The notes under the pieces were generated by a model. That model searched no databases and was not told where the DNA came from. It saw only the letters and a list, made by a program, of their open reading frames with translations. This document shows, in pieces, positions 1 to 59,626 of a stretch of DNA of 64,000 bases. Position 1 is the stretch's first letter. Every line of letters begins with the position of its first letter. Source of the DNA: Escherichia coli (lineage in GTDB: Bacteria > Pseudomonadota > Gammaproteobacteria > Enterobacterales > Enterobacteriaceae); assembly GCF_030384885.1 (NCBI RefSeq), contig NZ_CP128613.1; one strand, 5' to 3'. A program made the translations under genes and the position numbers.

Positions 1-111
1 CACTTCAAAGTAGCGAAAATAGTTACCGTGCCAGGCCACGCCCATCATATCGACGTCGTGAAATGGAATGATCAGCTCGACTTCAGCGGTAAATCGGGGA
101 TCGTTAAGCAC
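1..111 (-). CDS. hotdog-fold acyl-CoA/acyl-ACP thioesterase, N-terminal fragment (gene runs off window start)
   Basis: Reverse complement of 1-111 reads VLNDPRFTAEVELIIPFHDVDMMGVAWHGNYFRYFEV from a GTG at 109-111, immediately after the stop of the upstream gene; the ...HDVD..GVAWHGNYF pattern is typical of 4HBT/YbgC-type thioesterases. Start codon uncertain. Confidence 0.5.
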   Translation of the reverse strand, partial: MLNDPRFTAEVELIIPFHDVDMMGVAWHGNYFRYFEV

Positions 112-114
112 CCT

Positions 115-1791
115 TTACTCCTTGTCCTGGACTTCCGGCAGTTGCCAGAAATCGAAAAAATTAAACCAGTCGAGGGGCGACTGGAGCGCGTGATGTTCCA
201 GACGCGCGGCGTAATGATCGATAGCGTTTTGCAGCGCCTGCTGGCGTTCGCCACGCGGCAACAGCAGCGGGTCGGCAAAGGTTTCGCAGTGAATATGCAG
301 CTTGCCGTGCTGGCGCAGGGCGAAAATCAGATTCACCGGGCAGCGCAAAATAGAGGCGAGAATAAACGGCCCCTGTGGGAAGGGCGCAGGCTGGCCCATA
401 AACGGACTCCAGCAGACGCGCCAGTCGCCGCCGCGTTGCGGGTTGATGGCGATGCGGTCAGCAACAATCGCCACCCATTCGCCGTTATCCAGCTTCTCTT
501 TTAGCAGGATGGCGGTGTCCGGGCCGATATCCGTCACCGGGAGCAGGTTGATGCCTGCCTGCGGGGCCATCTCCTGCATTATCTGTTTAAAACGTTGGGC
601 GTTTTCGCTAAACACCAGCGCGTTAATGGTTTTGTAGCCCTGAATTTTTGCCAGCGCCCGGCACACTTCCACATCGCCAAGATGCGAGGCCAGCAGCAAT
701 TTGCCGCGCGGATCGCTGACGTTAAGTGCCGCTTCTGCGCCTGGTGCAAACAGCACATCACGCCCGAGTTGCAGCTCGCCGCGCCAACTGGCGATTTTGT
801 CGAGCATGGCGTTGCCGAAACGTAGAAAGTGCTGATAGCTGTTGAGTTTTGCTGCCTGTGGTTGATGCTGGCGCACACGGGCGAGCCAGTCTTGCGACGC
901 TTTGCGCGCCCGGCTGGCGGTGAGCCAGTAGACGCCCACCACCGGGTAAAGCAGCGCGGTAAACGCCGTTCTTCCCAGCAGGCGCCAGACCAGCAGCATC
1001 AGGCGCATTCCCCATAATCCTTTCACTTCGCTCTGCCGCGCCCAGTGGCTGGAAGAGTGGCGCATCAGCAGCGAAGGAATACGCGGCAACATGCCGAAAA
1101 ACAGGCGCGTGTGCATGAGCGAGATGCGGACGTTATCTTTCAGGGCATCAAAGTGCGAAAGCCCGTCCAGCGGATAGGTGACGCGAGTCGGCACGAAATA
1201 GCTGGTGTTTCCCTGCCAGTAGAGGCGCACCATCACTTCGGTGTCGAAATCCATCCGCTTGCCGATGGTGGCGTGTTTTGCCAGTTGCAGCGTTGGCGCA
1301 ACCGGATAAACGCGAAAGCCGCACATGCTGTCTTTCAGTTGCAGGGAGAGCGTTTCGATCCACACCCAGACGTGGGTGACCCAGCGCCCGTACAGCCGTG
1401 AGCGGGGGATGGAGTCATCGTAAATTGGCTGGCCGGAGATCAGTGCCGCAGGGTGTTGTTCAGCGAGTGCCAGCAGTTTGGGGATATCTTCAATCGCGTG
1501 CTGACCGTCGGCATCCACCTGTACCGCATGGCTGAACCCCGCGTCTGCCGCTGCCTGTAAGCCGCGCATTACCGCCGCGCCTTTGCCTGCGTTTTCTGCC
1601 AGGCGAATTAATGTCACGCCAGGCTGTTCGGCAACCAGATTATCCAGTTGCTGTTGCGTGGCGGCATCGCTGCCGTCATCCACCACAATACAGGGCAGAT
1701 TAAATGGCTTAAGACGCGCCAGCACGCCCGGCATCATTGCGCCGTGGTTGTAGCAGGGGATCAACACGCAGGGAGAAAAGTTTACCGACAT
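115..1791 (-). CDS. bifunctional family-2 glycosyltransferase / LpxL-like lipid acyltransferase (ApeJ-like)
   Basis: 558-aa ORF; N-terminus has GT-A signatures (LIPCYNH, VVDDGSDA, VDADGQH); C-terminal half resembles lauroyl/myristoyl (HtrB/LpxL-family) acyltransferases. Family assignment by pattern recognition, not search. Confidence 0.8.
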   Translation of the reverse strand: MSVNFSPCVLIPCYNHGAMMPGVLARLKPFNLPCIVVDDGSDAATQQQLDNLVAEQPGVTLIRLAENAGKGAAVMRGLQAAADAGFSHAVQVDADGQHAIEDIPKLLALAEQHPAALISGQPIYDDSIPRSRLYGRWVTHVWVWIETLSLQLKDSMCGFRVYPVAPTLQLAKHATIGKRMDFDTEVMVRLYWQGNTSYFVPTRVTYPLDGLSHFDALKDNVRISLMHTRLFFGMLPRIPSLLMRHSSSHWARQSEVKGLWGMRLMLLVWRLLGRTAFTALLYPVVGVYWLTASRARKASQDWLARVRQHQPQAAKLNSYQHFLRFGNAMLDKIASWRGELQLGRDVLFAPGAEAALNVSDPRGKLLLASHLGDVEVCRALAKIQGYKTINALVFSENAQRFKQIMQEMAPQAGINLLPVTDIGPDTAILLKEKLDNGEWVAIVADRIAINPQRGGDWRVCWSPFMGQPAPFPQGPFILASILRCPVNLIFALRQHGKLHIHCETFADPLLLPRGERQQALQNAIDHYAARLEHHALQSPLDWFNFFDFWQLPEVQDKE

Positions 1792-2135
1792 AGGCGGATC
1801 TTCCCGCTACTGGCGGTGTGGCGGGCGTCACCGTCGTGACGCTGATAACTAAAGCTCAGAATCTGGCGTTCTTCCTGCCAGCTAAGCGTGAGTGTGACGC
1901 GGTTATCCGGCAGCAATGGAGCCTGGAATTTGATGTTCTGAATGGAGTGAAAACGCCAACCGGGCGCGAGCAGGGCAAGCGCGTAACTCATCGCCCAGTC
2001 GATTTGTGCCACGCCGGGGAGTAATGGTTGTACGGCAAAATGACCGCGAAACCAGAACAGATCTGCCCTGAGATGCAAAACAATCTCAAGGTGATTCACT
2101 TGTGCCTGATGGCGCTCGATTTCATGGGGCTTCAT
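1782..2135 (-). CDS. FabA/FabZ-like hotdog 3-hydroxyacyl-ACP dehydratase
   Basis: Motif FRGHFAVQPLLPGVAQIDWAMS resembles the FabZ motif F.GHFP..P.MPGV; start placed at the ATG (2133-2135) preceded by AGGAG rather than the track's upstream ATG at 2165; overlaps the upstream gene's stop by 14 nt. Confidence 0.75.
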   Translation of the reverse strand: MKPHEIERHQAQVNHLEIVLHLRADLFWFRGHFAVQPLLPGVAQIDWAMSYALALLAPGWRFHSIQNIKFQAPLLPDNRVTLTLSWQEERQILSFSYQRHDGDARHTASSGKIRLCR

Positions 2136-3483
2136 GAAATAACTCCTGTAATTGCGCATAGACACGCTTGTTCATACTGTTTACTGGCATTTCATCAATA
2201 ACGCGCCAGTAACGCGGAATAGCAACTGGCTCCAGCGTCGGGCGCAGTAATCGCCGCCAGGCCATTTCCTGGCTGTGCCCGCCGCCGTTTTGCCATTGCA
2301 GGCGAGCTTCGTCATCCAGCACCAGCAAAACGCCAATACTCTGACGCCCGCCGCGCGTAACGGGAACTGCCGCCGCCTCGTGAATACCGTCCAGCGCCAG
2401 CAGACGTTGTTCTACTTCCTGGAGTGAAATGCGTTTTTCTTCAATCTTAACGATGCGTCCGCGACGCCCCATCAGATGGAACTGGCCGTCTTCGCTAAAC
2501 TGCAAGATATCGTCGAGTAACAGGCCGCTATCTTCCTCCATCAGAGGTGAAAAGAGACGAAAGGCATCATCTTCGGCCTGGAACTGCATACCTGGAAAGG
2601 GCCGCCAGCGGCGTTGCTCTTGTTCGCGGTAACGCCAGGCGATGACGCCGGTTTCCGTGCTGCCGTAGATTTCATCAGGCCAGACGCGCAGCCAGCTCGC
2701 GGTGTGTTGTACGTCCTGCCACGGTAGTTCACCGCCAGCGGACAGAAGCACCTGAACGGGGGGCGGGGATAGCTGAGCATCCAGACGCTTCAAAAATGCC
2801 GGGCTGCTGATGAAGATATAGCGATGCTGATGACTCAACGCGGCAAACTGTTCGACATACCAGAGCATGGCGGCATGGAGCGGTAATCCCAGCGCCATGG
2901 GCAGGAAAACGCGAAAAGTCAGGCCGTACAAATGCTGCGGCAATACGGAACCGATGACACGACATCCGGCAAGACGTGCGCCTAATCGTTCAGCCAGCAG
3001 TTCTGCTTCACGGTCCAACAAACGAACAGGTTTAATCACCCGCTTCGGCTGCCCTGTGGAACCAGAGGTAAACAGCTCGATATAAGCGTCTGGCGCTATA
3101 GCGGCAAAGGTGAATGATTGTGTCGCGACTTGTGGGGAGCTTGCTACCAACTGCAATGAACCTTGGCAGTTAAGTTCGCTGTCGCTAAGCACACCATCGA
3201 ACAGTTCACGTTGCTCGTTAAGCTGGATGACGCGGTTATGCCCCGGAAGCACCGGTGTTTTTCCGGCGTGTAGCGTGGCGAGCAGGGCAACGATAAACAG
3301 ATAGCAGTCCTCAAAGCACAGCGCCCAGCGTTCACCTGGTTGTTGCTGTAAACGGCAGATAAGTTGCGAGACATCGTGACGCAAATCGCCCAGCGTCCAG
3401 GTGCTTTCGTCCAGCCACGCAATGGGCGTGTCATCAGAGCGTGGCGCAGTCAGCCAGCGTGCAAGCGGTAAGGTCTGCTTCAT
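2122..3483 (-). CDS. AMP-dependent synthetase/ligase (acyl-ACP/acyl-CoA synthetase-like)
   Basis: TSGSTGQPK AMP-binding motif; start placed at the ATG that overlaps the upstream TGA as ATGA (3480-3483); the track ORF extends to 3522. Confidence 0.8.
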   Translation of the reverse strand: MKQTLPLARWLTAPRSDDTPIAWLDESTWTLGDLRHDVSQLICRLQQQPGERWALCFEDCYLFIVALLATLHAGKTPVLPGHNRVIQLNEQRELFDGVLSDSELNCQGSLQLVASSPQVATQSFTFAAIAPDAYIELFTSGSTGQPKRVIKPVRLLDREAELLAERLGARLAGCRVIGSVLPQHLYGLTFRVFLPMALGLPLHAAMLWYVEQFAALSHQHRYIFISSPAFLKRLDAQLSPPPVQVLLSAGGELPWQDVQHTASWLRVWPDEIYGSTETGVIAWRYREQEQRRWRPFPGMQFQAEDDAFRLFSPLMEEDSGLLLDDILQFSEDGQFHLMGRRGRIVKIEEKRISLQEVEQRLLALDGIHEAAAVPVTRGGRQSIGVLLVLDDEARLQWQNGGGHSQEMAWRRLLRPTLEPVAIPRYWRVIDEMPVNSMNKRVYAQLQELFHEAP

Positions 3484-4061
3484 GAGCGATCTCTTTTCAT
3501 CACCTGACGGCGCACCAGCCATTCACCAGCCATTAACGTCCCCATCAACAAATAAGCAATCATGCCGTTCCAGGCAGTCCATAACGACATATCGCCATGC
3601 AGCGCGGTAAAGAGGGCAATTCCGCCGTTGATGATGAAAAAGCCGCACCAGATTTGCGTGACGTGGCGGGTATAGCGCACGCCCTTTTCCGGGAGGTCTG
3701 GCTCCTGCAAACGCGCCAGCCGCTCAACAATTGGCATTGCCGACCACAGCGAACCGCCAAAAACCGCCAGCATTACCGCGTTAACCACTACCGGGTAAAA
3801 CAGCAGTAGCTGGTGCGTTTTCAACAGAAAGCTGGCAACACACAAGGCGATACCCACAACAGCGACGATTTGTGTGACGGCTTGTAGCGGCCCGGCCTGG
3901 CAACGAGTCTGGCGCAGGCGCAATAAAAGCAGCAGCGCCATCAGCGGCAACAGCCAGTGCAGGCCGTTATGTGCCAAACCAAGCCAAATCACAAACGGCC
4001 AGGCGAGCAGCAATAATCCAGTCAGCAGTTTAATAATCGGTAGCGAGCGAATGCCCGACAT
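3480..4061 (-). CDS. integral membrane protein of the lipid-biosynthesis cluster
   Basis: 193-aa ORF, several hydrophobic segments, co-directional and translationally coupled within the cluster. Confidence 0.7.
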   Translation of the reverse strand: MSGIRSLPIIKLLTGLLLLAWPFVIWLGLAHNGLHWLLPLMALLLLLRLRQTRCQAGPLQAVTQIVAVVGIALCVASFLLKTHQLLLFYPVVVNAVMLAVFGGSLWSAMPIVERLARLQEPDLPEKGVRYTRHVTQIWCGFFIINGGIALFTALHGDMSLWTAWNGMIAYLLMGTLMAGEWLVRRQVMKRDRS

Positions 4062-4065
4062 CAGA

Positions 4066-4317
4066 TCAGGCTTCTTGTAGCAGGCGTTCTACGGCCTCTA
4101 CGACATCCCGGACTGTACGCACTGCTTTAAACTCTTCCGGCTTGATTTTCTTACCGGTTTTCTTTTGCAGATGCACAATCATGTCAACGGCGTCGATGCT
4201 GTCCAGTTCCAGATCTTCGTACAGGCGCGCTTCAGGTTTGATGTCCTGCGGTTCGATTTCAAACAGCTTAACCAGCAGAGCTGAGACTTCCTGATAGACG
4301 GTTTGTTGTTCTGTCAT
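4066..4317 (-). CDS. acyl carrier protein
   Basis: 83 aa, acidic, LDSIDAVDMI phosphopantetheine-attachment motif. Confidence 0.85.
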   Translation of the reverse strand: MTEQQTVYQEVSALLVKLFEIEPQDIKPEARLYEDLELDSIDAVDMIVHLQKKTGKKIKPEEFKAVRTVRDVVEAVERLLQEA

Positions 4318-4328
4318 GATGGCTTTCC

Positions 4329-4586
4329 TCAGGCACGTTGTGCAGCAATAAAAGAGGCCAGAGTGGCGACAGAGAAAAAGTGCTGACGCATCTCTTCACT
4401 TTCCGCAGAAAGTACAACGCCATATTCATTTTTCACTGCCAGCCCCAGTTCCAGGGCATCGATAGAGTCCAGCCCTAAACCGTCGCCAAACAGTGGCGCG
4501 TCGGTATCGATATCATCAGGAGCCAACTCGTCCAGATTGAGGGTGCTGATGATGAGATTTTTAATTTCCAGATAAAGCGCTTGCAT
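4329..4586 (-). CDS. acyl carrier protein
   Basis: 85 aa, GLDSIDALELG phosphopantetheine-attachment motif; 5' end overlaps the upstream acyltransferase gene, so the exact start is uncertain. Confidence 0.8.
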   Translation of the reverse strand: MQALYLEIKNLIISTLNLDELAPDDIDTDAPLFGDGLGLDSIDALELGLAVKNEYGVVLSAESEEMRQHFFSVATLASFIAAQRA

Positions 4587-5382
4587 TATTTATTCCTGAG
4601 AGAGGTAAACAACCTTGTTGTAATTGAAGCAAAAGATGCCGGTTTAACTGCCTTGCTGCTAGCGCCGGTTCTTGTGAAGTTGCATCGTAAAATTTATTGA
4701 TTTCTACCCGCCCACGGACTTCAACCGTAAAAAGTGGCCTGGCAGGTGGAACGTCATACCATTTACTTTGTTTATCCAGCAGATGCTCGCTACAGCCGAT
4801 CGTCACGATGCGTAAATCGCTGGCGCAGCGCACGGCAATATTCGCCGCACCGCGCTGTAACGTCATTTTTTCACCAGGCTTCGTCCGCGTGCCTTCGGGG
4901 AAAATCAAGATAGTGTCGCCCTGTGCCAGTCGCTGTTGGCAACGGGGTAAGAGAGTTTCAGCTTCGCTGTTGATTAAATAATCTGCCGCCCGCACGACGC
5001 CGCCAAGAAAAGGATTTTTTAACAGCGCGCTTTTTACCAGGCAGTCAGTTTCTGGCATGACTGATGCCAGTAGTACGTAATCGATAAGCGTGGGATGATT
5101 AGCTACGACGAGGCAACCGCGTTCCTGACGTAAAATTTCAGCCCCATCAATACGATAATCCAGCACGCCAAGCCCTTTTGCGACTGTTAAAAACAGACGA
5201 AAACTGGCGGCAATGCTGCGACGCGCCAAACGACGGCGGCGGGAAGTGTTCCACACCAAAACTAACAGTACGTTAAACCACACCACAGAGAGTAGTAGTC
5301 CGCCGAGGCCAAACAGGGCAAAACACAACCCGGTCATAACCAGTCGCCATGTCCATTCCAGGCGTGACATCAGCTTACTCAT
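4561..5382 (-). CDS. PlsC-family (lysophospholipid/1-acylglycerol-3-phosphate-like) acyltransferase
   Basis: 273 aa; N-terminal transmembrane segment, NH-x4-D motif (ANHPTLID) and FPEGTRT motif. Confidence 0.8.
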   Translation of the reverse strand: MSKLMSRLEWTWRLVMTGLCFALFGLGGLLLSVVWFNVLLVLVWNTSRRRRLARRSIAASFRLFLTVAKGLGVLDYRIDGAEILRQERGCLVVANHPTLIDYVLLASVMPETDCLVKSALLKNPFLGGVVRAADYLINSEAETLLPRCQQRLAQGDTILIFPEGTRTKPGEKMTLQRGAANIAVRCASDLRIVTIGCSEHLLDKQSKWYDVPPARPLFTVEVRGRVEINKFYDATSQEPALAARQLNRHLLLQLQQGCLPLSGINNASALSGN

Positions 5383-6125
5383 CTACGGCTCCAGCGCCAC
5401 TGTACGCGCTCACCAGGAAGTGAAAAAGCATCTGAATTTTGTAAATAGTGCTGTAAAAACAACATGCTTTGCGGCAGTGTTGTTTCATTGCCCGCAATGG
5501 CTGGCTGTGTTTCACATTGCCACTCATCGCCAGCTTCAATCACCAGCGCAACAGCATATGGCCAGGTCGGCATTTCTGCTGGGAGCTGCGGATGATAGAA
5601 CTCAGGTAGAAAGCCATCAAAATCGACCATCAACACACGCTGGTATCCCGCTTGTAGCAGGCTAAGCACTTCACTCAAACCTTGCTGGAAAGTGTCGCGA
5701 CCAGCCGAAAGCGATGACGAAACGATCGGCTGTTTGGCCGCAATGGTCAGGTTACCCACGGAAGAGTTGTGTACTGAAAGTGCAAAGTCGGTGGGGGAAA
5801 GCGCCTGTTCAGTTGCCAGTGCATGAACAATGCGGTAATTGCGCTCCAGTTCGCCATGACGACTGGTATACAAAACGGCGTCTGGCTGATGGCGGCGTAG
5901 CATTGCCAGGCCGCATTCAACAGCCAGTTTGCTGCCTGAACTGAGGCGGCGGGCGGTCATCATTGGCAGTTCACTTAATTTTGCCAACGGCGCGGCAGGG
6001 TCAATCGCCCACGGCTGGCGCGACCATGCTTGCCATTGCTGCGCTTCGCTAAGTCCAGGCGCCAGTGCCTGCCAGTCGGTAATATTTAATGTAAATTTCA
6101 TCAACGCGCGCCCGCGGTAAACCAA
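5379..6125 (-). CDS. hypothetical protein, possibly beta-ketoacyl-synthase N-terminal-like domain (chain-length-factor-like)
   Basis: 248-aa ORF with ATGA overlap to the downstream acyltransferase; function inferred only from position in the cluster and vague resemblance; needs an HMM search. Confidence 0.6.
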   Translation of the reverse strand: MVYRGRALMKFTLNITDWQALAPGLSEAQQWQAWSRQPWAIDPAAPLAKLSELPMMTARRLSSGSKLAVECGLAMLRRHQPDAVLYTSRHGELERNYRIVHALATEQALSPTDFALSVHNSSVGNLTIAAKQPIVSSSLSAGRDTFQQGLSEVLSLLQAGYQRVLMVDFDGFLPEFYHPQLPAEMPTWPYAVALVIEAGDEWQCETQPAIAGNETTLPQSMLFLQHYLQNSDAFSLPGERVQWRWSRR

Positions 6126-6141
6126 AATTATTAAGTGACGA

Positions 6142-7209
6142 TTATTTCTTTTGGCATATCAAAAGAGTATGCCCAACGCCTAAATTATCGTGGCGCTCTG
6201 CTACCTGAAATCCTGCTTTATTCAGATAGTCGTAAAATTTCTCTGCACTATAGAAACGGCTGTTACCGTTTGCCATGCAGGTGAAATAAAGTGAGGACGC
6301 GTTCAGGCTAAATGATGCTGCTTCAAACCGCTGCGCATCCCAGAACAACTCCATGATGCAAACTTTTGCGCCAGGCTTCATTACGCTGGCGATTTTGCTG
6401 AGTATGCTAATTATTTGTTCGGGTGAAAAACAGTCTAAAAATTGGCTCATCCACCAGATATCAGCCTCGCCCGGTAATGGGGCATCGCTTAGCATATCCA
6501 CCGCATGGAAATCTATGCGATCAGAAAAACCTGCATTCGCGATATTTTCTTTCGCTAGTACGATTTGTTGTGGCAGATCTAATAACGTCACGGCGATGTT
6601 TTCATTGTATTTGCAGCAACGCAAAGCCCACTTACCCGTATTGCCGCCTACATCGTACAATGTTGTGGGGTTGTTGGCGAATACATAAGGCAGTGCGGCG
6701 TTAAATGCGCCATCTGAATAGTAATGATCAAACGCAAACCAGCTTTCACGAGCGGCATCTGGTAATTGTGAAAGTGCGGGATATATCGTCGACCAGTCGC
6801 CAAATACTTTTAACCCGGACGGTTTTCCTTCATTGAGTGAATCGGCGAGGAAGAAGAGCCCCTGATAGCAGACATCCTGGGTGAAATCCATATTCACGCG
6901 AGTCATAGTGTCATGCAGGAGGTAATGACCGATTTTCGCCAGGTAATACATTCCCTCTTTACAGGTAATAATTCGCCCGCTTAAGCCCATATCTAACAGA
7001 ACGCTGGCCGCATATTCGTTGATATGGCTATGTTCGGTGATATCAGCCAGCGTTGCGCCATGTTTGCCTTGCCGATCCAGATATGAAAGTACACCCGCAT
7101 TACGTAGGCAGAGAGCTGTTTGAAAAAGCATGGGGGCAAAGGCAATGCGTTGAGCTTCGGTAATCGCATCCAGTGCGCTAAGAGAATCCTGTTCGTACAT
7201 GTTGGGCAC
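6142..7209 (-). CDS. class I SAM-dependent O-methyltransferase
   Basis: 355 aa; VGGNTGKWA glycine-rich SAM-binding motif followed by LLDLP...DM..D, typical of O-methyltransferase family 2. Confidence 0.85.
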   Translation of the reverse strand: MPNMYEQDSLSALDAITEAQRIAFAPMLFQTALCLRNAGVLSYLDRQGKHGATLADITEHSHINEYAASVLLDMGLSGRIITCKEGMYYLAKIGHYLLHDTMTRVNMDFTQDVCYQGLFFLADSLNEGKPSGLKVFGDWSTIYPALSQLPDAARESWFAFDHYYSDGAFNAALPYVFANNPTTLYDVGGNTGKWALRCCKYNENIAVTLLDLPQQIVLAKENIANAGFSDRIDFHAVDMLSDAPLPGEADIWWMSQFLDCFSPEQIISILSKIASVMKPGAKVCIMELFWDAQRFEAASFSLNASSLYFTCMANGNSRFYSAEKFYDYLNKAGFQVAERHDNLGVGHTLLICQKK

Positions 7210-7268
7210 AACCTGTTAAGAGGGAATTAAATTATTATCGGACCGAAGCGGCCCGACTTTAGGGGAAA

Positions 7269-7658
7269 TTACAAATCTGCGCCAGCCGACAAATTCAGTT
7301 GAATATCTTTGTCGAGATTGCGGACCCAGCGATTATAGTTTTTATGAATTTGTCCGCCTGATGCTTGCAGGTTCTGACTATTTTCATAATTGATATCGTA
7401 GCTGGATGCCGTGTAGTTAATGCGAATTTCGGCTGAATGATCGCGTGACTGTTGACGTGCTTTAATTACGCCTTGTCCGGCTTCGGACATAATCCATTTG
7501 CGTTCAACGCCAGCTTTCAGAATCGCTTTTTTCACTTGTTCCGGGGTATGACCAGCGCTGACGGTTGAGTGAACCTGATCAATTGGCGCAGTACGCGCGC
7601 AACCCGCTAAAGCACCCACAACAGCAATAGCCGCAAACCATTTCATGTAATGTCTCAT
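7269..7658 (-). CDS. small lipoprotein, first gene of the cluster in this window
   Basis: 129 aa; signal peptide with lipobox LAGC (MKWFAAIAVVGALAGC); exact start (7658 vs 7646) uncertain. Confidence 0.65.
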   Translation of the reverse strand: MRHYMKWFAAIAVVGALAGCARTAPIDQVHSTVSAGHTPEQVKKAILKAGVERKWIMSEAGQGVIKARQQSRDHSAEIRINYTASSYDINYENSQNLQASGGQIHKNYNRWVRNLDKDIQLNLSAGADL

Positions 7659-8037
7659 TAGAATCCCATTAAAGTATTGTTTTTACGAGTAAAGCAAGAT
7701 TTAACTGTAATTGCTGGCATCACTATTCTTTATTTAGCGAAAAAATTACTTGTGAGATAAGTCAGTAAGTGCACATCAGAGTAAAAATTTCTGAAATGAC
7801 TAAATTACTGCCAGCGGGGACCAACTATAAGTGAGTGAGAAAAATGAGGCAATAAAAATAACAGATTGTTATCAGTGCATTCTTTGAGAGGGATTTAATC
7901 GCTATTCGGCGTTTATATATATTTGACTTAAGGAATGGTTTTTATAAATTAATTGTCTGAATAATGTTTCTTCATTTCCTCAAATCAAATGGCCACTGTT
8001 AGATAAACGGTGGCCATTGCCTGCTCAGGAGGTGCTA

Positions 8038-9087
8038 TTAACCTGGTAACCGACTTTTCGGTCTGCCCGGCCCCAGTAAGATCGCCAGTTTGCTACCGCC
8101 TTTGGTGGTTTCCATCCAGATTTTACACACGCTGGTTAATGGTACCGAAAGTAGCATTCCAACCGGGCCGAGCAGCCATCCCCAAATCAACAATGAAAGA
8201 AATACCACCATGGTGGACATCCCCAGGCGATGGCCCATCATCCGCGGTTCTAAAATATTGCCGATGACCATATGGACAACTAAAAACAATGCGCCGACCA
8301 GAATACATTCGTAAACGCCATTAAACAGCAGCACCTGAATCATTGGCGGTACGGCGGAAATTACCGCGCCGATATTGGGGACGTAGTTAAGCAAAAACGC
8401 CAGTACCGCCCACATCAGCGCAAACTGTACACCCATAAGTTCCAGCCCCAGCCAGACGATAATGCCTGTCCATAAACTTAGCAGTGTCTTCAATGCAAGA
8501 TAGTGCGAAACACCTTTTAAGGCGCGGTGTAGTCCGGCGATGTGAATCTGTGGATTATTCAACGCAAAACGCATTTTGTAAGGGACGTGGCGCACTTCAA
8601 ACAGCATGAAAACTACGGTCATCACCAGCAAAAGCACGCTCGCCATTGCCCCGGAAAGCCCGGTCATTAGCGCCGTGGTGAAGGTAACCACTTTTTCCGA
8701 GTCCATCCGCTGCAGCATTCGCTCCGGCGACATATGCAAATTAAGAAAAGGCAACATCTCCTGCAATTTAAAAAGCTTGCGCGTCAGCTCCTTATTAAAC
8801 TTCGGCAGCATAGAGATAAATTCGTTAAACGAAGCTGCCAGTACACCGACCAGTGCGGTAAGTGCGATCAGCATCACCACCACCACAATCGTAATTGCAA
8901 CGGGGCGTTGTACTCCGCGACGAATAAACCAGGTGACGAGCGGGTTGAGGACGATGGCAAAAAACAGCGCCAGTAACAGTTGCACAATGATATCTGCCGC
9001 TGCGTGAATGCCCGCGAGGATTACTACCAGCGAGGCCAGTTTAAGCAGAATGTGCATGCCCGTTTTATCGGGTTGAGGGGTTTCCAT
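8038..9087 (-). CDS. yhhT: AI-2E/PerM-family membrane transporter YhhT
   Basis: Protein from METPQPDKTGMHILLK recognised as E. coli YhhT (349 aa); start at the ATG preceded by AGGAAG rather than the track's longer ORF. Confidence 0.93.
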   Translation of the reverse strand: METPQPDKTGMHILLKLASLVVILAGIHAAADIIVQLLLALFFAIVLNPLVTWFIRRGVQRPVAITIVVVVMLIALTALVGVLAASFNEFISMLPKFNKELTRKLFKLQEMLPFLNLHMSPERMLQRMDSEKVVTFTTALMTGLSGAMASVLLLVMTVVFMLFEVRHVPYKMRFALNNPQIHIAGLHRALKGVSHYLALKTLLSLWTGIIVWLGLELMGVQFALMWAVLAFLLNYVPNIGAVISAVPPMIQVLLFNGVYECILVGALFLVVHMVIGNILEPRMMGHRLGMSTMVVFLSLLIWGWLLGPVGMLLSVPLTSVCKIWMETTKGGSKLAILLGPGRPKSRLPG

Positions 9088-38128: not shown

Positions 38129-38219
38129 GCGATCAGGAAGACCCTCGCGGAGAACCTGAAAGCACGACATTGCTCACATTGCTTCCAGTATTACTTAGCC
38201 AGCCGGGTGCTGGCTTTTT
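38129..38219 (+). ncRNA. ryhB: RyhB small RNA (Fur-repressed, iron-sparing)
   Basis: Sequence gcgatcaggaagaccctcgcggagaacctgaaagcacgacattgctcacattgcttccagtattacttagccagccgggtgctggcttttttt recognised as E. coli RyhB with its terminal hairpin and U-tract; lies between yhhY and yhhX as expected. Confidence 0.92.
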
Positions 38220-38341
38220 TTTTGACCTTTCGTTCTCAATTTATCCACGGGAAGTGCTTGTGTTTGTTATGCGCACTCCTGTAGGAACCGCGTCCGCTTT
38301 GCGCTAAGGTGGTAGATAACCACCTTAAAAAGGACGAAATC

Positions 38342-55131: not shown

Positions 55132-56649
55132 ATGGAAAGAATAATGCAAAACAGAAAATGGATTTTGACCTCGCTGATAATGACTTTTTTCGGCATCCCC
55201 ATACTGGCGCAATTTTTGGCAGCGGTTATTGCCATGCTGGGGGCCGGGCTTGCCGCTATTCTTGAGGCTTGCAATTTACTCTTTACGCCAACAATTTATC
55301 TTCTACTCAACGTCTTTATGCTGACGCTGGGGGCGATAATCCTATTTTTCTCTGGTCGCGTGTGGGCCGGTGATAGCGCACCAGAAAACAGAGAAATAGC
55401 CGTCTGGCGGCAATGCTTTTTTCTTTTACCTGCACTGTTAACTCTGGTTGGCTGGATAATCACGCTACATCTGGCAGATTATCAATTTCGCCAAATGGGA
55501 GCAGGTTGGTTGGCAGAGCTTATGCTCCCCTGGCTGGGAGTTTTGTTAGTCTCATTAGTCGGAGGTGAGTTCTGGTGGATAGTCATTATACCCGTTGGTG
55601 CGCATATTAGTTTTTCGCTGGGGTATGGCTGGCCGACCAGATATCCTTTAACCGGCACGTACGGGTTACGTTGCCGTAATTCCCTCCTGTTTATCCTTCT
55701 CATGCTTGGTTTTATCGCTGGTTATCAGGCTTATTTATATAAACAGATTAATCCCGGCGTCGGTGTGCGTGAAAATATTGATACCTGGGCCTGGCGACCC
55801 GATAAACTCAATAATCAACTGACGCCACTGCGTGGTAAACCGCAAATTCAGTTTACACAAAACTGGCCGCGACTCGATGGTGCTACGGCGGCGTACCCAA
55901 TTTATGCTTCTGCCTTTTATGCGTTGAGCGTTATACCGGAAGATTTCCACACATGGGAATATCTGGAGAACTCTCGTACCCCCGATGCATATAACAGGAT
56001 TGTTAAAGGTGATGCCGATATTATTTTTGTGGCGCAACCTTCCGGTGGGCAGAAAAAACGTGCAGAGGAATCGGGCGTCACTTTGAACTACACTCCTTTC
56101 GCCCGTGAAGCATTCGTTTTCATCGTCAATGCGGATAACCCGGTTAATTCCCTGACTGACCAACAGGTGCGTGACATCTTCAGTGGCGCAATTACCAACT
56201 GGCGTACTGTTGGCGGTAACGATCAGGAGATCCAGACCTGGCAACGCCCGGAAGACTCTGGCAGCCAGACAGTGATGCAATCGCAGGTCATGAAAAATGT
56301 CCGCATGATCTCGCCGCAGGAAACCGAAGTGGCAAGCATGATGGAGGGAATGATTAAAGTTGTTGCCGAATACCGTAATACAAACAACTCAATAGGCTAC
56401 ACCTTCCGCTATTACGCAACACAAATGAATGCCGATAAAAATATAAAACTGCTAGCTATTAACGGTATTGCACCGACTGCGGAAAATATTCGTAACGGCA
56501 AATATCCATATATCGTCGATGCCTTTATGGTAACGCGGGAAAATACTACGTCAGAAACACAAAAACTGGTCGAATGGTTTTTAACGCCGCAGGGGCAGAG
56601 TCTGGTGGAAGATGTGGGTTATGTACCGTTGCATACAACAATGAAATAA
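55132..56649 (+). CDS. hypothetical fusion protein: N-terminal multi-pass membrane domain + C-terminal PstS-like (PBP-like) periplasmic binding domain
   Basis: 505-aa ORF; the first ~230 aa are hydrophobic helices; the C-terminal domain carries PstS-family-like segments (NSLTDQQVRDIFSGAITNWRTVGG, WQRPEDSGSQTVM); start may instead be the ATG at 55144. Confidence 0.8.
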   Translation: MERIMQNRKWILTSLIMTFFGIPILAQFLAAVIAMLGAGLAAILEACNLLFTPTIYLLLNVFMLTLGAIILFFSGRVWAGDSAPENREIAVWRQCFFLLPALLTLVGWIITLHLADYQFRQMGAGWLAELMLPWLGVLLVSLVGGEFWWIVIIPVGAHISFSLGYGWPTRYPLTGTYGLRCRNSLLFILLMLGFIAGYQAYLYKQINPGVGVRENIDTWAWRPDKLNNQLTPLRGKPQIQFTQNWPRLDGATAAYPIYASAFYALSVIPEDFHTWEYLENSRTPDAYNRIVKGDADIIFVAQPSGGQKKRAEESGVTLNYTPFAREAFVFIVNADNPVNSLTDQQVRDIFSGAITNWRTVGGNDQEIQTWQRPEDSGSQTVMQSQVMKNVRMISPQETEVASMMEGMIKVVAEYRNTNNSIGYTFRYYATQMNADKNIKLLAINGIAPTAENIRNGKYPYIVDAFMVTRENTTSETQKLVEWFLTPQGQSLVEDVGYVPLHTTMK

Positions 56650-56674
56650 CTTTTGAGAGAACGGAATCAGCGCG

Positions 56675-57667
56675 ATGAATAAATTCATAGGCGTTTTACT
56701 GCTAGGTGCGGTTTTACTGGCGGGATGTGTCGACCGGGAAGGCTACTATAACAGCGTCAGGGAAGAAGACAGCCATGGACTGACGACTCTGCGGGGGCAA
56801 CCTGAATTACGTTACAACGATGATTGGTCAAGATGGCCGAGAGTATACGGCGCTACAGCCTTATACCCGCTGTATGCCTCCGCGTATTATGAATTAGTAC
56901 CCGAGCCAAAAGATAAGGATCGAACCTCGCTGGCCTGGCAGGCGTATGGTTTGCAACAAACCCGAACAGCTGAAGCCTACGATAGTCTGATCAAGGGTAC
57001 CGCGACGGTTATTTTTGTTGCACAACCGTCGGAAGGACAGAAAAAACGTGCAGAAGAAGCAGGCGTTAAACTGAAATATACCGCGTTTGCCCGCGAAGCC
57101 TTTGTCTTTATCGTTGATATCAAAAACCCGGTTAATTCACTTAGCGAACAGCAGGTCAAAGACATTTTTAGCGGTAAAGTGAGTCGCTGGAATAAAGTGG
57201 GCGGCGGTGACGAAAGTATAAAAGTCTGGCAGCGGCCAGAAGATTCTGGAAGCCAAACGGTTATGAAGGGACTGGTTATGCAAGATACTCCAATGCTGCC
57301 AGCCAAAAAATCCACTGTTATCGATCTTATGGGCGGTTTAATTACCGAAGTCGCCGACTACCAAAACACAACATCTTCCATTGGATACACCTTCCACTAT
57401 TACGTCACACGTATGAATGACAATATGCTCAAAATGCGCAAACAGATCAAACTGCTAGCTATAACTGGCATTGCGCCTACAGAGGAAAATATCCGTAACG
57501 GCACTTATCCGTACATAATTGATGCTTATATGGTGACGCACGAAACCCCTGCGCTGGAAACGCAGAAATTCGTCGACTGGTTTTTAAGCCCGCAGGGACA
57601 GCAATTGGTAGAGGATGTGGGGTATGTGCCGATTCATGACGCATCATACGAATCATCAGTGCAATAA
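56675..57667 (+). CDS. hypothetical PstS-like (PBP-like) lipoprotein, paralogue of the C-terminal domain of the upstream gene
   Basis: 330 aa; lipobox LLAGC; long identical/near-identical stretches with the preceding protein (FVAQPS.GQKKRAEE.GV, NPVNSL..QQV.DIFSG, WQRPEDSGSQTVM, IGYTF.YY.T.MN). Confidence 0.85.
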   Translation: MNKFIGVLLLGAVLLAGCVDREGYYNSVREEDSHGLTTLRGQPELRYNDDWSRWPRVYGATALYPLYASAYYELVPEPKDKDRTSLAWQAYGLQQTRTAEAYDSLIKGTATVIFVAQPSEGQKKRAEEAGVKLKYTAFAREAFVFIVDIKNPVNSLSEQQVKDIFSGKVSRWNKVGGGDESIKVWQRPEDSGSQTVMKGLVMQDTPMLPAKKSTVIDLMGGLITEVADYQNTTSSIGYTFHYYVTRMNDNMLKMRKQIKLLAITGIAPTEENIRNGTYPYIIDAYMVTHETPALETQKFVDWFLSPQGQQLVEDVGYVPIHDASYESSVQ

Positions 57668-58269
57668 TGATGAATAAAATCAGACTTTATATTCCTCCGT
57701 TAATTCTTGGTTTTGTTATTGTGCCGTTGTTGGTGTGGCCGACGGTGGTTGCGCTGGCTGCTTCTGTTATCACGCTGAGTTTTCTGGGAGAGATACTGTT
57801 CTCTATCCCGCTCATGATCAGGCGTATTTCACTTCTGCAATTACAACTATGGTTATCGGCTGAATATGCGCTTTTCTTCTGTGCAATGGTGGGCGTTGGT
57901 TGGCAATTTGCGCGCAGAACGCCACCTGAATTGAAAAGCAGACTGCATTGTTGGCTGGTATTTGCACCAGTTTATTTCTGGTTGCTCCTGTGGAATATCA
58001 TTTTCTATGTCGCGCCAGCGAATATTGCGTTGCTGGAGAATATGCGCAGTTTCTTTCTGACAGTTGTCTGGCTCCCACTGAATTTTTCGCCATTTTGGTC
58101 TCAACCGTGGATTGACTTTGTCGGTCCAATAAGCGCACAGCTTGGTTTTGCGTTGGGATATTATTGCCAGTGGCGTAGCAAAAATAGAAGCCAGATACGG
58201 AAGTGGAGTGAGTGGGGAACGTGCCTGAGTTTTGTTACGTTGGGTATGATGGCGTGGGCTTTGCGGTAA
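57667..58269 (+). CDS. hypothetical membrane protein, paralogue of the N-terminal membrane domain of the 505-aa protein
   Basis: 200 aa, multi-pass; TAATG overlap with the upstream lipoprotein gene; segment GPISAQLGFALGYYCQW matches PVGAHISFSLGYGWPTR of the fusion protein. Confidence 0.75.
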   Translation: MMNKIRLYIPPLILGFVIVPLLVWPTVVALAASVITLSFLGEILFSIPLMIRRISLLQLQLWLSAEYALFFCAMVGVGWQFARRTPPELKSRLHCWLVFAPVYFWLLLWNIIFYVAPANIALLENMRSFFLTVVWLPLNFSPFWSQPWIDFVGPISAQLGFALGYYCQWRSKNRSQIRKWSEWGTCLSFVTLGMMAWALR

Positions 58270-58376
58270 TTCCCTGACTCAAAAAGTAGGTCAGATTGTT
58301 GACAAAGTGCGCTTTGTTCATGCCGGATGCGACATGAACGTCTTATTGGCCTACAAGACCATGCAAATTGTAGTGG

Positions 58377-59626
<1,250 letters not shown>

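Follow-up and report, generated by a model that had tools for sequence, protein, structure and literature searches.

Assignment of a minus-strand gene block beside yhhT in Escherichia coli to an aryl polyene biosynthetic cluster

Introduction

The first 7,658 nucleotides of a 64,000-nt stretch of Escherichia coli DNA (NCBI RefSeq assembly GCF_030384885.1, contig NZ_CP128613.1; the whole stretch is hereafter the window) are occupied by a run of minus-strand genes that lies beside yhhT, and the question that this locus raises is which biosynthetic system these genes belong to and how that system relates to the uninterrupted yhhT–acpT site of K-12. An initial annotation had taken the run for part of an aryl polyene (APE) gene cluster. 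The comparisons reported here make it very nearly certain that window 1–7658 is the promoter-proximal part of an 18-gene E. coli cluster for APE, a yellow membrane pigment lipid, and that this cluster, set between yhhT and acpT, is the island that O157:H7 carries at that site. Few bacterial biosynthetic gene clusters are as widespread as those of the APE family, and the E. coli version has been dissected both genetically and biochemically. The system between yhhT and acpT is already known, its recognition in the window is an ordinary finding, and the presence of the cluster here matters little beyond correct annotation. The two-state nature of the site, the combination of a scar and a second-site copy in CFT073-type strains, and the divergence of apeA and of the apeG-H-I block are modest additions to this picture.

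Materials and Methods

Annotation was taken from RefSeq record NZ_CP027579.1 (E. coli 2013C-4282, human stool, USA), which megablast matched to the window at 100%. Direct comparison found two single-base differences across 21.7 kb, and the RefSeq annotation of this record is therefore valid for the window; the differing bases lie at window positions 4109 (C vs. T, inside apeF) and 13192 (T vs. C). Strain BB24-1 served as the O157:H7 comparator, MG1655 as the K-12 comparator and CFT073 as the APE comparator. Protein families were checked by NCBIfam, Pfam, sequence search of the PDB and motif inspection, with cut-offs of 70 bits for NF006617, 65 bits for NF003757 and an equivalog cut-off of 560 bits for NF053543. 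Megablast and junction counts refer to a sample of 5,426 complete E. coli genomes.

Results

The open reading frame list and the RefSeq annotation agree on ten intact genes, apeA to apeJ, and one cut gene, apeK, all on the minus strand of window 1–7658 (Table 1). The genes are densely packed, with five junctions overlapping by 4–26 nt and the remaining gaps spanning 3–68 nt, and their frames are genuine coding sequence, not chance. The packing, strand and functions given in the initial annotation stand, with its count of ten tightly packed genes amended to ten whole genes plus one fragment. Its expectation that ketosynthase, ketoreductase and exporter genes would be found beyond the window start is borne out in NZ_CP027579.1, where the operon goes on to the left (apeK–apeR) with a LolA-like protein, an MMPL transporter, a DUF3261 protein, a ketosynthase, an "ApeP family dehydratase", FabG2 and a second ketosynthase. 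In this record acpT begins 2 nt past the last ketosynthase gene, apeR, at the far end of the island, and the 18 ape genes and acpT share one strand and carry zero pseudogene flags.

The order and predicted function of the window genes agree one for one with the published apeA–apeR table (c1204–c1186), whose first half lists a lipoprotein, a methyltransferase, a ketosynthase, a lysophospholipid acyltransferase, two consecutive acyl carrier proteins (ACPs), a COG4648 protein, an acyl-ACP synthetase and a dehydratase, and whose second half lists a glycosyl/acyltransferase, a thioesterase, a LolA-like protein, a resistance-nodulation-division (RND) protein, a DUF3261 protein, a ketosynthase, a dehydratase, a ketoreductase and a ketosynthase (PMC8253772). 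The ApeB–ApeK order that had been expected from other APE clusters is hence recovered, being collinear both with this table and with CFT073. The APE assignment is further backed by PDB matches of ApeC to 6QSP_B (E 4e-92, full length, residues 9–247) and of ApeI to 6QSR_A (E 4.4e-38), both from Xenorhabdus doucetiae, which agree with the published ApeO–ApeC and ApeI/ApeP partners (PMC8253772). Beyond the collinear order, the features of an APE cluster that are seen in the window itself comprise ApeC, the tandem ACPs ApeE and ApeF with their phosphopantetheine serine, and ApeH. The dehydratase pair is completed by ApeP, whose gene is annotated beyond the window start and whose sequence is 97% identical to CFT073 ApeP, and ApeO, ApeR, ApeQ and the RND/MMPL transporter ApeM follow contiguously on the same side, with 97–99% identity to CFT073.

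Evidence from individual proteins supports these assignments to different degrees. ApeC matches PF13723 in Pfam (E 1.7e-66), and ApeI shows a FabZ-like NCBIfam match and an intact HFxxxPxxPG motif. Both ACPs score well above their family cut-offs, ApeF with 144.5 bits for NF003757 and an intact DSID phosphopantetheine site, and ApeE with 90.7 bits for NF006617 and an intact GLDSI site. ApeD matches TIGR00530 (E 3.4e-15) and retains the HPTLID (HX4D) and FPEGTR motifs, and the DVGGNTG motif of ApeB is likewise intact. In ApeH, matches to TIGR02372 and to the A-domain (NCBIfam) accompany intact TSGSTGQPK and YGSTE core motifs; its relatives have PF00501, its orthologues span the Enterobacterales, and its predicted specificity is for 4-hydroxybenzoate. 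The start of apeK shares 97% identity with the thioesterase of CFT073 and with that of O157:H7. ApeA bears a signal peptide with the lipobox LAGC and has no family in Pfam or NCBIfam, and for ApeG no match was returned by NCBIfam and a weak one to IspA by Pfam (E 0.0049), its orthologues being called "COG4648 family protein" by the NCBI annotation pipeline (PGAP).

ApeJ, which is 97% identical to its CFT073 counterpart, had been described as a fusion of a GT2 glycosyltransferase and an LpxL-like acyltransferase. The GT2 part is confirmed by PF00535 over residues 8–131 (E 2.5e-20, Pfam) and by a GT2 match in NCBIfam. The acyltransferase was not detected directly in the C-terminal half, Pfam on full ApeJ returning GT2 only and the PDB sequence search giving no meaningful match, and the LpxL-like part is reached only through homologues: relatives of this half at 42–50% identity (97–99% coverage) have PF03279 and bear the name LpxL/LpxP family acyltransferase, either as standalone proteins or as GT2 fusions.

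Table 1. Features of the ape operon and its upstream region (positions are those of the window).
Feature	Position	Strand	Description
apeK (first 37 codons; rest left of window)	1–111	minus	Hotdog acyl-CoA thioesterase (RefSeq annotation)
apeJ	115–1791	minus	N-terminal GT2 glycosyltransferase fused to putative C-terminal LpxL/LPLAT-like acyltransferase; RefSeq: GT2 protein
apeI	1782–2135	minus	Small FabZ-like hotdog dehydratase; PGAP "ApeI family dehydratase"
apeH	2122–3483	minus	Adenylate-forming enzyme (AMP-ligase); RefSeq: AMP-binding protein
apeG	3480–4061	minus	Integral membrane protein, COG4648 family; RefSeq: hypothetical membrane protein
apeF	4066–4317	minus	Second ACP
apeE	4329–4586	minus	First ACP, presumed carrier of aryl polyene chain
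apeD	4561–5382	minus	PlsC/LPLAT-type lysophospholipid acyltransferase
apeC	5379–6101	minus	Truncated ketosynthase, KS-N/chain-length-factor-like; PGAP "beta-ketoacyl synthase chain length factor"
apeB	6142–7200	minus	S-adenosylmethionine-dependent methyltransferase (presumed to act on aryl head group)
apeA	7269–7646 (to 7658 from alternative upstream ATG)	minus	Small lipoprotein; RefSeq: hypothetical protein
Leader	7647–7987 (~340 bp)	minus	AT-rich, non-coding, presumed ape promoter region; GC 0.376 in 7501–8000
Stem-loop	7988–8018	minus	Right after yhhT stop codon; 9-bp stem AAUGGCCAC/GUGGCCAUU, then UGAUUUG

The island that had been suggested to correspond to the one next to acpT in O157:H7 does so: in BB24-1 the same 18 genes lie between acpT and yhhT, and all 18 proteins, together with AcpT, share 93–99.6% identity with their counterparts in the window strain. 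The best non-self match of the window among the sampled genomes reaches 95.7%. The ape ACPs of O157:H7 were reportedly described by De Lay and Cronan (2006) as AcpT substrates, and that the cluster stands beside acpT in O157:H7 has been known since 2006. The yhhT–acpT ape gene set is presumably the O-island designated OI-138, as the same 2006 work reportedly has it. OI-138 is described as large and as belonging to the O157/O145 lineage (PMC3893438), and O145 strains carry the ape island between yhhT and acpT, as revealed by megablast.

K-12 had been thought to have acpT directly after yhhT, and annotation and junction alignments bear this out: in MG1655, acpT follows yhhT by 54 bp, with no island between them and no ape genes at the site. 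In the junction alignments, K-12 homology covers the acpT start codon and a further 16–17 nt, which are the last five to six codons of apeR (..KRWP, stop), and on the other side it resumes at the yhhT stop codon. This apeR remnant lies immediately upstream of acpT (locus L003, 10950–10969; counterpart at locus L001, 6633–6650). Since the 3' codons of apeR are kept in K-12, its junction is to be read as a deletion scar, a reading that accords with the title of De Lay and Cronan (2006) as cited in PMC8253772. No direct repeats and no mobile-element ends flanking the island emerged from a repeat search along its entire length, and hence there is no sign of integrase-type insertion.

Across the sampled genomes, the cluster is present somewhere in 825 of 5,426. 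The apeA–yhhT junction, diagnostic of the island at its site, occurs in 569 and the K-12-type junction in 4,856; together they account for 5,425 genomes, which makes the yhhT–acpT site a two-state one. It looks as though one shared deletion removed the cluster from K-12 and from about 90% of E. coli, orphaning acpT. CFT073 combines the K-12-type scar at yhhT–acpT with an APE cluster at a second site, where the cluster adjoins decayed sugar-utilisation genes, a contact-dependent inhibition locus and insertion sequence (IS) fragments, with acpT unlinked.

Comparison with CFT073 divides the cluster into two parts. Fourteen of the proteins are 94–99% identical between the two strains, against 82% for ApeG, 72% for ApeI and 65% for both ApeH and ApeA, and DNA identity is 62–71% in window 1850–3650 and 7000–7650 vs. 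91–98% in the rest of the cluster. The same ApeA that is 65% identical to its CFT073 counterpart is 98% identical to that of O157:H7. Full-length copies of the window-type apeG-H-I block occur in 566 genomes, which are in essence the ones that carry the island at yhhT–acpT. ApeH of the window has relatives at 97% identity, within its Escherichia cluster, and then none until 74%, in Citrobacter and Klebsiella, and CFT073 ApeH is as distant from it as are the alleles of other genera. By contrast, the two E. coli types share 97% identity in the C-terminus of ApeJ, which is 74–78% identical to those of Klebsiella and Enterobacter. The genus-level distance of ApeH, set against the 94–99% identity seen elsewhere in the cluster, points to the two types of E. 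coli APE cluster being recombinational mosaics, which would trace back to an exchange made long ago with a distant relative.

An ApeH pair separated by a between-genera distance, together with the divergence of ApeI, ApeG and ApeA and of the underlying DNA, could be taken to mean that the cluster, while belonging to the APE family, makes a product chemically unlike that of CFT073 in its aryl starter, chain length or lipid anchor. This is improbable. Of the 158 ApeH positions with a conservation of 97% or more across 118 homologues, both alleles keep 155, each with three mild substitutions, and the differences between them are evenly spread; nothing thus points to altered ApeH function, and a different ApeH specificity finds no support. 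ApeC and both ketosynthases, moreover, are 95–99% identical between the two types, and the 4-hydroxy-3-methylphenyl hexaene of CFT073 is also made by Xenorhabdus (bioRxiv 10.1101/2020.12.19.423268), whose ApeC and ApeI have diverged even further. Only slightly less doubtful is the broader conjecture that a block of about 1.8 kb (3' apeG, apeH and apeI), along with apeA and the promoter region, is foreign at the genus level in one of the two types, and that the O157/2013C-4282 type may differ from CFT073 in starter loading, dehydratase partnership or, above all, regulation. Were this the case, CFT073 results would not transfer to enterohaemorrhagic E. coli (EHEC). The apeA and apeG-H-I differences may in any case be worth bearing in mind when APE findings made in uropathogenic strains are carried over to EHEC.

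In the leader upstream of apeA, a promoter scan returned one sigma-70-like site (7852–7824), with no excess over shuffled controls. The stem-loop that follows the yhhT stop codon lies in a 56-nt stretch (7975–8030) with a folding energy of -21.2 kcal/mol (z -3.9), and is probably the yhhT terminator, insulating the ape operon; a simple terminator scan missed it because its loop is 13 nt long. Rfam reported no RNA family within 1–8100.

Elsewhere in the window, a 102-aa hypothetical protein (WP_000385061.1; 12415–12723, plus strand) lies between tusA and zntA, an interval without an annotated gene in K-12 and in O157:H7 BB24-1, and a 248-aa hypothetical protein (WP_000558846.1; 28859–29605, plus strand) lies between livF and ugpB. 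The small RNA RyhB is located at 38158–38222 on the plus strand (RF00057, 83 bits), in the yhhX/yhhY region. Between glgP and glpD, an accessory insert (55141–59554) encodes two PstS-family phosphate-binding proteins, a hypothetical protein and an IS3-family transposase with a programmed frameshift; a minus-strand match to the Rfam family isrC (59436–59558) overlaps the IS3 end.

Discussion

The assignment of window 1–7658 to the yhhT–acpT APE cluster draws on gene order, flanking genes and protein identity, and several observations weigh against it or against its functional extension. The best family of ApeB is NF053543, the FlxJ-family methyltransferases (E 1e-142), at a score of 475 bits that lies below the 560-bit equivalog cut-off, and support for an acyltransferase in the ApeJ C-terminus is transitive only, by way of its homologues. 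Product chemistry, including that of the yellow aryl polyene chromophore, is known from the CFT073 and Xenorhabdus clusters only. ApeA, ApeG, ApeH and ApeI are only 65–82% identical to their CFT073 counterparts, and function transfer therefore rests on weaker similarity for these four proteins. The region upstream of apeA cannot be aligned with its CFT073 counterpart, so that regulation may differ between the two clusters. Lastly, the ape cluster of Xenorhabdus is silent in the laboratory (bioRxiv 10.1101/2020.12.19.423268), and the window cluster may consequently be silent too.

This last point, in conjunction with the absence of a significant promoter signal upstream of apeA and with the deletion of the cluster in about 90% of E. 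coli, which suggests dispensability, would be expected if the genes were intact and cryptic, an effectively silent relic yielding no pigment under natural conditions. Such a state is about as unlikely as a change in product. The 18 genes and acpT have all stayed intact, their reading frames overlap and their catalytic motifs are conserved, and the island has been kept at 93–99% protein identity in O157, O145 and other lineages. Furthermore, studies cited in a 2026 preprint report induction of the O157:H7 ape genes by host epithelial cells and expression of ApeH in human infection. Halogenases are a hallmark of xanthomonadin clusters, as are dialkylresorcinol enzymes of flexirubin clusters. It is barely credible that the locus is instead a flexirubin- or xanthomonadin-type cluster, a generic second fatty acid synthase or a lipid A modification locus, as the FlxJ affinity of ApeB, the relatedness of the ApeJ C-terminus to lipid A late acyltransferases and the resemblance of many of the proteins to type II fatty acid synthase enzymes might suggest, since the FlxJ score is below its cut-off, none of the 18 product names denotes a halogenase or a dialkylresorcinol enzyme (a survey of names only, with no dedicated search), and the cluster is collinear with that of CFT073, where most proteins are 94–99% identical and the product has been determined; any such identity is thus refuted as far as sequence comparison reaches.

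With the locus taken as an APE cluster, a pathway can be proposed by orthology, its steps being carried over from work on CFT073 and Xenorhabdus doucetiae on the basis of 93–99% identity to O157:H7 and 65–99% identity to CFT073. AcpT would convert ApeE and ApeF to their holo forms, as it activates their homologues in O157:H7 EDL933 (PMC8253772), and ApeH would adenylate 4-hydroxybenzoate and load it onto an ACP (PMC8253772), presumably ApeE. The chain would be started by ApeR and elongated with malonyl units by the ApeO:ApeC ketosynthase/chain-length-factor pair, and in each round reduction by ApeQ and dehydration by ApeI/ApeP would generate the conjugated polyene (PMC8253772). ApeB is predicted to methylate the phenol ring, and the ApeK thioesterase may serve in proofreading, a role that is considered uncertain (PMC8253772).

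Lipid assembly would proceed through acylation of lysophosphatidylglycerol by ApeD, for which the donor in Xenorhabdus is a conjugated fatty acyl chain built on ApeF (bioRxiv 10.1101/2020.12.19.423268). The GT2 domain of ApeJ would then add N-acetylgalactosamine (GalNAc), onto which its presumptive acyltransferase domain would esterify the ApeE-bound aryl polyene; the end product in Xenorhabdus is a glycerol-phosphate-GalNAc lipid (bioRxiv 10.1101/2020.12.19.423268). ApeG, ApeL, ApeM and ApeN (bioRxiv 10.1101/2020.12.19.423268) and perhaps the lipoprotein ApeA are the candidates for carrying the APE lipid to the outer membrane, where it would be expected to protect against oxidative stress and to promote biofilm formation.

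Among known systems, the flexirubin and xanthomonadin clusters share with the window cluster a logic akin to that of type II polyketide and fatty acid synthases, an aryl starter and, in the FlxJ family, a relative of ApeB, and differ from it in the sub-cut-off FlxJ score and in the dialkylresorcinol enzyme and halogenase names lacking from the 18 products in the survey of names described above. The ape cluster of Xenorhabdus doucetiae stands closer, with orthologous ApeC and ApeI, the same chromophore and a published description as "highly similar" to that of E. coli (bioRxiv 10.1101/2020.12.19.423268); it belongs to another genus, its protein identity in the residue alignments is below the within-E. 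coli level, and it is the sole cluster for which the intact lipid product has been determined. In the APE_Ec cluster of CFT073 (Cimermancic 2014; Johnston 2021), for which product and gene essentiality have been determined, the same 18 genes occur in the same order and 14 of the proteins are 94–99% identical; this cluster differs in its chromosomal site, among pseudogenes, IS fragments and contact-dependent inhibition genes, and in having no adjacent acpT. The closest counterpart is the O157:H7 island, from which the window is distinguished as a separate allele (ApeC is 92.9% identical) with no functional difference indicated, and with which it shares the site, the gene order, the acpT gene that follows and 94.8% DNA identity over 7.7 kb.

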